Below are positions 9,053 through 10,263 of a stretch of 12,853 nucleotides of DNA, piece after piece. Below the pieces are notes generated by a model that was given only the letters and a program-made list of their open reading frames with translations, searched no databases and was not told where the DNA came from. Position 1 is the first letter of the stretch, and each line of letters begins with the position of its first letter. The stretch is from a virus: the UHGV virus genome UHGV-1704341. One strand, given 5' to 3'. A program made the translations under genes and the position numbers.

Positions 9053-9476
9053 GCAGAGTCACCGCGATTATCTCCGTTCTGGTTATCTGCATCATCGTCT
9101 GCCTGTCATGCGTGATAACGCCATCACCTACAAAAAGCAGCGCGATAAGGCCGCATCCATTATCGCTGACATGCAGAAACGTCAAAGTAATGTAGCTGAA
9201 CTCGATGCCAGATATACAAAGGAGCTTGCTGATGCTAACGCGACTATCGAAAGTCTTCGTGCTGATGTTTCTGCTGGTCGTAAGTGGCTGCACGTCAAAG
9301 CAGTCTGTCCGGACATGCATAAAACCACCGCCGCCTCCGGCGTGGATGATGCTTCCAGCCCCAGACTTACTGACACCGCTCAACGGGATTATTTCGTTCT
9401 CAGAGAGCGCATCGAAACCATAACTAACCAATTGCATGGCCTGCAAGAGTATGTGAGATCACAGTGTTCATATTAG
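9049..9476 (+). pseudogene. Rz: Rz (i-spanin) with frame disruption: N-terminal TM segment in frame 1 (9049-9198), periplasmic domain in frame 0 (to 9476)
   Basis: ATG 9049 overlaps the endolysin stop and encodes MSRVTAIISVLVICIIVCLS, then goes out of register and stops at 9196-9198. The lambda-Rz-like body (RDNAITYK.QRDK...SGVD..SPRL.DTA.RDYF.LRER) is in frame 0. Relative to lambda Rz, the codons for about WAVNHY are missing apart from 2 nt. Confidence 0.7.
9232..9423 (+). CDS. Rz1: Rz1 (o-spanin) lipoprotein, embedded in the +1 frame of Rz
   Basis: MLTRLSKVFVLMFLLVVSGCTSKQSV...KPPPPPAWMM: signal peptide with lipobox (VVSGC) and a proline-rich mature part, as in lambda Rz1. Appears intact. 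Confidence 0.75.
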   Translation: MLTRLSKVFVLMFLLVVSGCTSKQSVRTCIKPPPPPAWMMLPAPDLLTPLNGIISFSESASKP

Positions 9477-9514
9477 AAAAGTCTTATCATGAGATTTTTG
9501 TATATGGATGCATT

Positions 9515-9889
9515 ATGTCTCAATACGCGCGCGCCGCTTTAATCGCTTATCATTTGGTTGCTGATAGCTCAATGCCTCCTCGTGATGCATGGGATGCAGC
9601 TGTCGCAGAGGTTACAGAAAGCGAATCGTCAAGAAAGAAGATATGCCCAAGGGCAACATTTCTCGCCCTGGCGGATAGCGGTTACCTCAAGAATGTAAAA
9701 CCACTGCATGGGGAGAAAAAGGGCGGTAAGTTGTACCAAAGGGCAATTGAAGTTGCGAATCTGATTCTTGATTTACCCGGAATCAGTAAAGCTGAATTGG
9801 TTGATAAAACTGGTTACAAAGACAGGCAAGGGTCTTATGACCTGATTCTCGCTCTGTATCATCATGAGCAACTCCAGCGACCGGAATAA
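9515..9889 (+). CDS. Hypothetical 124-aa protein (accessory region between lysis and packaging genes)
   Basis: ORF-track ORF 9464-9889 begins with GTG overlapping the Rz end; the first ATG is at 9515. No recognisable family and a weak RBS. Confidence 0.4.
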   Translation: MSQYARAALIAYHLVADSSMPPRDAWDAAVAEVTESESSRKKICPRATFLALADSGYLKNVKPLHGEKKGGKLYQRAIEVANLILDLPGISKAELVDKTGYKDRQGSYDLILALYHHEQLQRPE

Positions 9890-9939
9890 TTATCCCAGCA
9901 TCAGTGTCAAAAATAGGCAGTGATACGCTATTTTCCTGA

Positions 9940-10000
9940 AAATACTTTACTAACATTTTATGAGAATTATCCTAGTAAAGTGTTTATTTAAAAGGAGTTT
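9940..10000 (+). promoter_or_regulatory. AT-rich promoter-like region upstream of the small membrane protein gene
   Basis: 117-bp AT-rich intergenic spacer with several near-consensus -10-like hexamers (TAAAGT, TATTTA) and RBS aggag (9993-9997). No single clean -35/-10 pair. Confidence 0.3.
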
Positions 10001-10006
10001 GGGTTT

Positions 10007-10210
10007 ATGAAAATTCTCTGGGTCATCAGTCTTTTGTGTAGTGCTATTGGATTTATTGAAGGAATCCTCGGGGTTTTCGGTGCTCAGAGTGCTCCACAAC
10101 AGGCTGCAGGTGCAGCAATGGGAGTAGCATGGGCAGTTATTCCATATTGTATTTGTCGTGCTATCCAACAATTGCGCCCTCGAGAAGTCATTATTAAAAA
10201 GGAAGAATGA
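10007..10210 (+). CDS. Small membrane protein (67 aa, two predicted TM helices), moron-like
   Basis: Good RBS and ATG 10007. Product MKILWVISLLCSAIGFIEGILGVFG...AAMGVAWAVIPYCICRAI has two hydrophobic segments and a basic C-terminus. Flanked by a promoter-like spacer and a terminator. Confidence 0.55.
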   Translation: MKILWVISLLCSAIGFIEGILGVFGAQSAPQQAAGAAMGVAWAVIPYCICRAIQQLRPREVIIKKEE

Positions 10211-10241
10211 CCAGATCTTATCCGGTGTTTTTTCTGTCTAA

Positions 10242-10263
10242 GCCTCGCGTCGCGGGGCTTTTT
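10242..10263 (+). terminator. Intrinsic terminator after the small membrane protein gene
   Basis: Stem gcctcgc/gcggggc (one G-U pair) with 3-nt loop, followed by ttttt (10259-10263). Confidence 0.5.

Follow-up and report, generated by a model that had tools for sequence, protein, structure and literature searches.

Do the two small genes that separate the lysis and packaging modules of a lambdoid prophage form a single accessory unit, and what might their products do? The question is raised by UHGV virus genome UHGV-1704341, a stretch of 12,853 nucleotides (nt; hereafter the window) that covers the early-right region and the lysis and packaging genes of a lambdoid prophage of E. coli whose head module is of the HK97 type. 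An original prediction, made from the sequence alone, had described positions 9464-10263 as a moron locus of two genes, one for a 124-residue protein (open reading frame 1, ORF1) and one for an independently transcribed 67-residue membrane protein (ORF2). Both ORFs lie on the + strand, and the slot that they occupy is variable among related phages, in line with an accessory locus. We find that the segment from 9946 to 10266, encompassing a putative promoter, a strong ribosome-binding site, the 67-codon ORF and a terminator, is very probably an autonomous moron cassette, and that its product may, more tentatively, serve to exclude superinfecting phages. The locus is ordinary in kind for lambdoid prophages and its interpretation as a moron is essentially right for ORF2; it does not extend to ORF1, which has no promoter-like site of its own and is not paired with ORF2.

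Anatomy of the ORF2 cassette

ORF1 and the cassette are joined by an AT-rich spacer (9890..9945, + strand) specific to the E. coli/Shigella arrangement. The GC content falls to 0.31 at 9900-10049 and ranges from 0.31 to 0.46 across 9900-10270, the HNH and terminase genes standing at 0.56-0.60. Alignment of 67 distinct ORF2 upstream regions showed that conservation sets in abruptly about 60 nt before the ATG, the sequence farther upstream being at background level: column conservation is 0.76-0.83 in the hexamer regions, as compared to 0.45 upstream of position 9944. The conserved block, gCTTTACTAAA-N-TTATCCTAAT...AAGGAG...ATG, includes a -35-like hexamer, TTTACT (9946..9951, +), kept in relatives, and a -10-like hexamer, TATCCT (9968..9973, +), 30-33 nt ahead of the ATG. 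A pair of such hexamers (no more than two mismatches overall, 16 nt between the hexamers and 30-33 nt between the -10 hexamer and the ATG) is present in 51 of the 67 upstream regions and in 4.3% of shuffled sequences. The -35 element occurs as TTTACT or as TTTACA, the latter closer to consensus. The -10 element occurs as TATCCT, TATCAT, TATTCT or TATGCT; positions 1, 2, 3 and 6 are constant, as a sigma-70 promoter predicts, and the changes fall at positions 4 and 5. These features suggest that TTTACT-16 nt-TATCCT at 9946-9973 is a moderate promoter of the sigma-70 type, one that is visible solely through comparison with relatives. A ribosome-binding site, AAGGAG (9993..9998, +; column conservation 0.80), is found 8 nt before the ORF2 start codon.

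The downstream end of the cassette is marked by an intrinsic terminator, identified by a terminator scan at 10240..10266 (+). Its stem, AAGCCTCGCG-TCG-CGGGGCTT (10240-10260), comprises nine pairs, six of them G-C, folds in context and is followed by a T-run (TTTTTATT); 10 nt separate the end of the terminator from the HNH start codon (10276). A hairpin with a T-run is present downstream of the ORF2 homologue in nearly all lambdoid relatives. The commonest stem among these is GCCTCGC-loop-GCGGGGC, with freely varying loops, and some relatives have alternative stems (ACCGCC/GGCGGT, CCCCGC/GCGGGG, GCCTCGC/GCGAGGC). The stem columns pair in 86% of cells, as compared to 33-62% when the 3′ partner columns are slid one to three positions out of register; RNAalifold, run on 30 terminators, returned no consensus structure. 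The AT-rich promoter-like spacer, the good ribosome-binding site and the downstream terminator that had been proposed for the small gene are thus all in place, the promoter being recognised at the level of sequence conservation.

An exchangeable cassette in a variable slot

Morons are recognised (Juhala/Hendrix, summarised in PMC3594210) as extra DNA between genes that are otherwise adjacent or have their interval differently filled, with a promoter and a terminator of their own, a base composition unlike that of the neighbours, and transcription from the repressed prophage. The ORF2 cassette is inserted DNA, the slot being empty or differently filled in related phages; it has its own terminator, a deviant base composition and, as far as sequence evidence goes, its own promoter. 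That it is expressed from the prophage appears somewhat probable.

The moron reading of ORF2 is supported by the fact that promoter, ribosome-binding site, ORF and terminator are conserved as a unit while the flanks change. The ORF2 homologue is found ahead of at least three types of terminase (HNH with P27-type TerS/TerL, lambda Nu1/GpA, and a third, GpA-like terminase) and behind lysis cassettes with three different holin/endolysin sets. DUF6979, the family to which ORF1 belongs, is the upstream neighbour in the E. coli/Shigella group only; elsewhere the place is taken by a 74-residue protein or by something else. In many lambda-type prophages, Rz is followed by DUF6979 without the small gene and then directly by the hairpin GGCCTCGC-TTTTA-GCGGGGCTTTTT, and DNA homology with lambda-type phages (mEp460) stops at 9890, exactly at the ORF1 stop codon. 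E. coli prophages with the same Rz and HNH flanks, and HK97, have a KilA-N gene or nothing in the slot (the order in HK97 and in locus L138 is Rz ... KilA-N ... HNH, the HK97 KilA-N protein being gp73), and Rahnella-type phages have glycosyltransferase morons there. A slot of this kind is known in lambda, where the variable, non-essential region after Rz/Rz1 contains bor, an opposite-strand gene for a lipoprotein. Like bor, ORF1 and ORF2 come immediately after Rz/Rz1; unlike bor, they specify a predicted cytoplasmic DUF6979 protein and a co-oriented, predicted inner-membrane hairpin.

ORF2 homologues are also found among tail genes. In the Edwardsiella myophage Edno5 the homologue lies directly 3′ of the tape-measure (“lytic tail protein”) gene and overlaps its end, and in Morganella prophages it likewise comes directly after the tape-measure gene. 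In Tahibacter, a zinc-ribbon fusion (see below) is located about 430 base pairs (bp) past the tape-measure gene, and in a Pseudomonas prophage the homologue is flanked by tail genes K and I and accompanied by two other inserted ORFs.

Two sequence elements associated with module boundaries came to light in the same comparisons. The terminator GCCTCGC-N3-6-GCGGGGCTTTT recurs at many such boundaries, being present in 116 of 264 loci, some of which have two or three copies. It is placed after ORF2 in the window (10240-10266), directly after Rz in HK97 (L170 496-518) and after DUF6979 in lambda-type prophages; a further example is L124 4394-4416. The element may be a shared recombination joint for cassette exchange, and it illustrates how such cassettes may be shuffled. 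The second element, a 20-bp inverted repeat (AGGCATTCAnTGAGTGCCTG), is absent from the window. In other phages it flanks DUF6979 modules and small-gene modules, immediately preceding the cassette promoter or immediately following DUF6979 (L044 3914-3933, L156 4390-4409, L161 3943-3962 and 17 other loci).

The ORF2 product, a predicted two-helix membrane protein

ORF2 (10007..10210, +), a gene also called by PGAP, matches phrog_12304 over its entire length (residues 1-67 of 67, E 2.1e-44). Kyte-Doolittle hydropathy reveals two hydrophobic segments, at about residues 2-25 and 33-54, and AlphaFold2 models the protein as a helical hairpin (helices 2-24 and 29-56; mean pLDDT 86), in agreement with the two-helix membrane protein originally proposed. 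Positive charges are present at the N-terminus and in the C-terminal tail, and the four-residue turn carries none; by the positive-inside rule, both ends are therefore probably cytoplasmic.

Variability at codon positions 1, 2 and 3 of ORF2 is 0.12, 0.06 and 0.39, respectively, and this concentration at third positions fits purifying selection on the protein; both ORF1 and ORF2 are real genes under such selection. The family alignment shows hardly any variation in SAPQQAAGAAMGVAWAVIPYC, the motif of the loop and helix 2. Little or no change is seen in the turn and helix 2 (SAPQQAAGAAxGxAWAVIPYC..RA), and helix 1 is free to vary except at W5, G15 and G19. Relatives in Enterobacterales form 45 protein clusters at 52-97% identity; more distant ones occur in Xanthomonadales, Pseudomonas, Bacteroidota, Caulobacteraceae and Acidobacteria. 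In the Xanthomonadales (Dokdonella, Tahibacter) the two-helix domain lies behind an N-terminal zinc-ribbon-like CxxC...CxxC segment (L016 3797-4174, L025 3806-4177 and L026 3755-4177, the L026 gene lying after a tape-measure gene). Shigella phage SfI encodes a 67-residue protein that is 100% identical (L001 3608-3808; NC_027339 37695-37895), the DNA of the genes being about 98% identical; the SfI gene carries no annotation in either the GenBank or the RefSeq record.

The two proteins had been thought to belong to no recognisable family. Both do fall into catalogued families (DUF6979/phrog_5039 for ORF1, phrog_12304 for ORF2), and the claim holds to the extent that these families have no assigned function. 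ORF2 has no significant match in Pfam, NCBIfam or PADLOC. Its sole match among the PADLOC defence models, to the part of PycC that lies in the membrane, is weak (E 0.026, covering 27 residues). The score against the type IV secretion pilin PF18895 (13.9 bits, for a threshold of 26.6; E 0.059) is below threshold and reflects hydrophobic-hairpin resemblance only; a pilin identity was rejected on these grounds. A PDB sequence-profile search with the ORF2 family yielded nothing meaningful, and a Foldseek search of the hairpin against PDB yielded generic helical hairpins only. Altogether, Pfam, NCBIfam, PHROGs, PADLOC, PDB sequences and fold searches gave no homology of either protein to a structural or lysis protein of defined function.

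A possible role in superinfection exclusion

The reading that we favour, on a tentative basis, is that ORF2 encodes a lysogen-expressed inner-membrane factor that excludes incoming phage DNA. It is favoured because ORF2 homologues adjoin tape-measure and tail genes, and because HK97 gene 15 shares the anatomy and the placement. Gene 15 is the first moron to be described and the defining case of one expressed from the prophage: it encodes a 62-residue inner-membrane exclusion protein that blocks genome entry of other phages, adjoins the tape-measure gene, and combines a strong ribosome-binding site with an intrinsic terminator that comes right behind the ORF (PMC3594210). ORF2 resembles it in specifying a predicted inner-membrane protein in the 60-residue range, in the succession of ribosome-binding site, ORF and terminator, in its location between late genes, and in having some homologues that adjoin tape-measure genes. 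It differs from gene 15 in three respects: ORF2 and gp15 give no BLASTP alignment at E values up to 100; gp15, to judge from its sequence, seems to contain a single hydrophobic segment, at the N-terminus, and a charged tail, where two segments are predicted for ORF2; and ORF2 in E. coli sits at the lysis-to-packaging junction.

On the exclusion reading, the late operon would be silent in the lysogen and the cassette promoter would give a short monocistronic mRNA ending at the hairpin, before the HNH and terminase genes; during lytic growth, Q-modified RNA polymerase would read through this hairpin, 10 nt before the HNH start. The ORF2 protein would enter the cytoplasmic membrane as a hairpin of two helices, its two termini facing the cytoplasm, and its working surface would be the near-invariant small-residue helix 2 (G35xxxG39, P46-Y47) together with the Q31-Q32 turn. 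The lysogen would be protected by blocking, at the inner membrane, the DNA entry of superinfecting phages, as HK97 gp15 does.

Several observations weigh against this reading or against the cassette anatomy on which it builds. A generic promoter scan found no promoter in the spacer, because TTTACT-16 nt-TATCCT agrees with only 8 of 12 consensus positions. Covariation in the terminator stem is weak (three double-change cells, and an observed pair count that is reached in 49 of 500 shuffles), since the stem is conserved mostly as sequence; what speaks for the terminator is therefore its conserved sequence, the T-run and the alternative hairpins. The Edno5 and Morganella copies have no terminator and the Morganella homologue overlaps the gene that follows it; in these phages the homologue is a late-operon gene. 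No sequence or fold similarity of ORF2 to gp15 or to any known exclusion protein was detected by PADLOC, PDB profile, Foldseek or BLASTP searches. The near-invariance of helix 2 extends from Enterobacterales as far as Bacteroidota and Acidobacteria, which is unexpected for an arms race with phage tails and points to a conserved host target or to self-assembly. Finally, some distant homologues have no visible phage genes nearby. It is for the last three of these reasons that the assignment is held tentative.

Alternative roles for ORF2

Among the alternatives, the one that survives best, unlikely as we hold it to be, is that ORF2 is a lysogenic-conversion factor, bringing a fitness gain to the host either by binding and modulating a conserved inner-membrane machine or by making it immune to a bacteriocin or microcin that acts on the membrane. 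The loop and helix 2, being extremely conserved between phyla, suggest that the protein has a conserved partner or self-assembles, the cassette anatomy fits expression in the lysogen, and the distant homologues without obvious phage context are in keeping with this role, as is the content of neighbouring accessory slots in related prophages, which hold glycosyltransferases and a colicin/pyocin immunity protein. Searches in Pfam, NCBIfam and PDB, however, found no known immunity protein or small regulatory membrane protein that is similar, and the recurring placement next to tape-measure and tail-tip genes would be left unexplained.

It is improbable that ORF2 acts by damaging the membrane, whether as a holin/antiholin-like factor in lysis timing, a small toxin or a depolarising abortive-infection pore. 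With 67 residues, two transmembrane helices, termini that are both predicted to face inward and a charged tail at the C-terminus, the protein is reminiscent of class II holins (S21 of phage 21) and of some small toxins; the gene adjoins the lysis cassette, and the weak PADLOC match involves the membrane part of PycC. Unlike class II holins, ORF2 has no holin family match in Pfam or PHROGs and has its own promoter and terminator, an arrangement that would harm a holin. Also unlike them, it coexists with a complete holin-endolysin-spanin set, whose holin is of the lambda family, and is tied to no one holin/endolysin type, being linked to three unrelated holin types and occurring far from lysis genes as well. 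A holin role is thus unlikely, and the holin/antiholin candidate was rejected on the absence of a family match, the gene's own promoter and terminator, and the presence of a separate holin. As to a small toxin, the promoter scan gave no minus-strand promoter-like site within 9900-10300, and the sole Rfam match over 7500-11200 was a sub-threshold chance hit to asX2 (23 bits, for a threshold of 70). Neither an opposite-strand promoter nor an antisense RNA gene being found to supply an antitoxin, a type I toxin-antitoxin system was rejected.

Just as improbable is the possibility that ORF2 is merely the last gene of the late transcript before packaging, its upstream motif serving in RNA processing, protein binding or as a recombination joint. 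Such a gene would be oriented as ORF2 homologues always are, namely as late genes, and would form an operon with its neighbours, as in Edno5 and the Morganella prophages; the promoter agreement at 8 of 12 positions, and the recurrence of the terminator hairpin as a boundary element at many module junctions, including after Rz in HK97, are compatible with it. Yet the hexamers vary as sigma-70 predicts, with -10 positions 1, 2, 3 and 6 and the 16-nt spacing fixed, and a terminator that stands 10 nt ahead of the following start codon is understandable chiefly as a means of insulating a lysogen transcript.

Finally, the idea that ORF1 and ORF2 form a two-component system (a toxin-antitoxin or sensor-effector pair), to which their adjacency and common orientation in 52 E. 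coli genomes and phage SfI might lend credit, is highly implausible and was rejected, as the genes occur separately: most lambda-type prophages with DUF6979 do not have the small gene, most other phages with the small gene do not have DUF6979, DNA homology breaks exactly at the ORF1 stop codon, and in one prophage the genes are 2.2 kb apart.

ORF1, a DUF6979 protein

The ORF1 frame spans 9464-9889 when read mechanically from a GTG; the 124-residue product begins at the ATG at 9515 (9515..9889, +), which is the PGAP start in identical copies and matches the N-termini in the family alignment. ORF1 scores 97.7 bits against Pfam DUF6979 (PF22399; E 7.3e-28, gathering cut-off 27), with residues 1-120 aligned to profile positions 1-126 of 127 and the conserved K-x-C-P-R motif present, and it belongs to phrog_5039 (E 1.8e-69). 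Membership in DUF6979 names the ORF1 product without explaining it. The product is a predicted cytoplasmic, all-alpha accessory protein, modelled by AlphaFold2 with pLDDT 95.4. No further match came from Pfam or NCBIfam and there were no PADLOC hits; a PDB sequence-profile search with the family gave nothing meaningful, Foldseek against viral models gave no match at E below 0.7, and a literature search on DUF6979 returned no papers.

ORF1 starts 38 nt past the Rz stop codon and has a weak ribosome-binding site. The promoter scan revealed no promoter-like site for ORF1, and the terminator scan no terminator after it in the window. ORF1 is probably expressed as an accessory gene of the late operon, from the transcript that includes Rz. 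It is separate and separable from the cassette, with a possible connection to restriction or anti-restriction.

This last connection comes from the wider distribution of the family, which comprises at least 244 clusters at 50% identity in bacteria and archaea and is characterised by the motifs A-W..A, S-x-S-S-R-x-K-x-C-P-R..F-L.L and N-G-Q-M-D-V-V..L-W. Outside this locus DUF6979 genes reside in mobile elements; in other phages they are found after Q, between lysis and packaging, or in the nin region (in lambdoid phages, the group of small accessory genes that precedes Q). In cellular genomes, several DUF6979 copies are tightly packed between restriction-type genes. The contexts include HsdR/DUF6979/McrBC, SNF2-Mrr protein/DUF6979/GmrSD and HNH/DUF6979, as well as positions beside DndB and SIR2 and near a ScoMcrA-like nuclease (examples of copies beside restriction-type genes are L177 5001-5375, L181 5001-5384 and L180 5001-5384). 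In one protein, P0177, DUF6979 is joined to the C-terminal portion of the HpaII endonuclease. Involvement in restriction or anti-restriction stays a doubtful lead with modest support, because the neighbour census (98 immediate neighbours in 59 metagenome loci) is heterogeneous: defence-type hits are scattered, and no partner is constant. In an Enterobacter lignolyticus-type prophage, DUF6979 adjoins a colicin/pyocin immunity gene (PF01320, E 3e-35; L164 4394-4654), which is an orphan immunity moron.

The prophage around the locus

The window is 99.3-99.4% identical to prophages of many complete E. coli genomes. The interval 9400-10300 is 100% identical in dozens of these genomes and 98.4% identical to Shigella phage SfI. 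The gene order, as annotated by PGAP in an identical copy, is Q antiterminator, small hypothetical gene, lambda-family holin, GH24 endolysin, Rz (“lysis protein”), “DUF6979 family protein”, “hypothetical protein” (the 67-residue ORF2 product), HNH endonuclease, P27-type small terminase and large terminase.

Compared with intact prophages, the window has about 11 private insertions and deletions (sites at 1143, 1373, 1672, 2872, 8176, 9111, 10388, 10705-10714 and 11908), which are shared by no complete E. coli genome; substitutions are nearly nil outside one recombinant patch. They include a 13-bp duplication at the repressor start codon and a 58-bp deletion in a cro-like gene; there is an additional C in ymfL and a 33-bp deletion upstream of the holin gene. 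Rz is frameshifted by a 16-bp deletion and HNH by a 56-bp deletion, the start of terS (small terminase) is affected by a deletion of about 25 bp, and terL (large terminase) is frameshifted by a 16-bp duplication. This copy is thus either a defective prophage or a damaged sequence. Both ORF1 and ORF2 are free of private changes; at such a density, this would occur by chance about half of the time and is therefore uninformative on selection.

A second low-GC stretch (7745-8200, GC 0.35-0.42) lies in the interval between the Q antiterminator and holin genes, where PGAP calls a hypothetical ORF, also of 67 residues (7937-8140). In Stx phages, the Q-to-holin slot carries toxin genes and tRNAs. The low-GC stretch may be another moron.

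Significance

Prophages alter their hosts mainly through morons, and most moron proteins have no known function. The cassette described here, compact and with clear boundaries, occurs in dozens of clinical E. coli genomes as well as in Shigella phage SfI. Should ORF2 turn out to be an ordinary exclusion factor, the result would be a useful annotation and no surprise. A further-reaching possibility, on the speculative side, is that ORF2 represents a widespread inner-membrane family whose invariant SAPQQAAGAA...AWAVIPY helix docks on a conserved component of the host membrane through which phage DNA enters, and that DUF6979 is a new restriction-associated or anti-restriction factor. If true, this would amount to a new mechanism of superinfection exclusion, carried between unrelated phages as a promoter-to-terminator cassette. 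The compact form of the cassette, its occurrence in clinical genomes and an unusually invariant membrane helix, recurring as it does across Enterobacterales, together make it an easy and well-defined target for work on exclusion, toxicity and partner finding.

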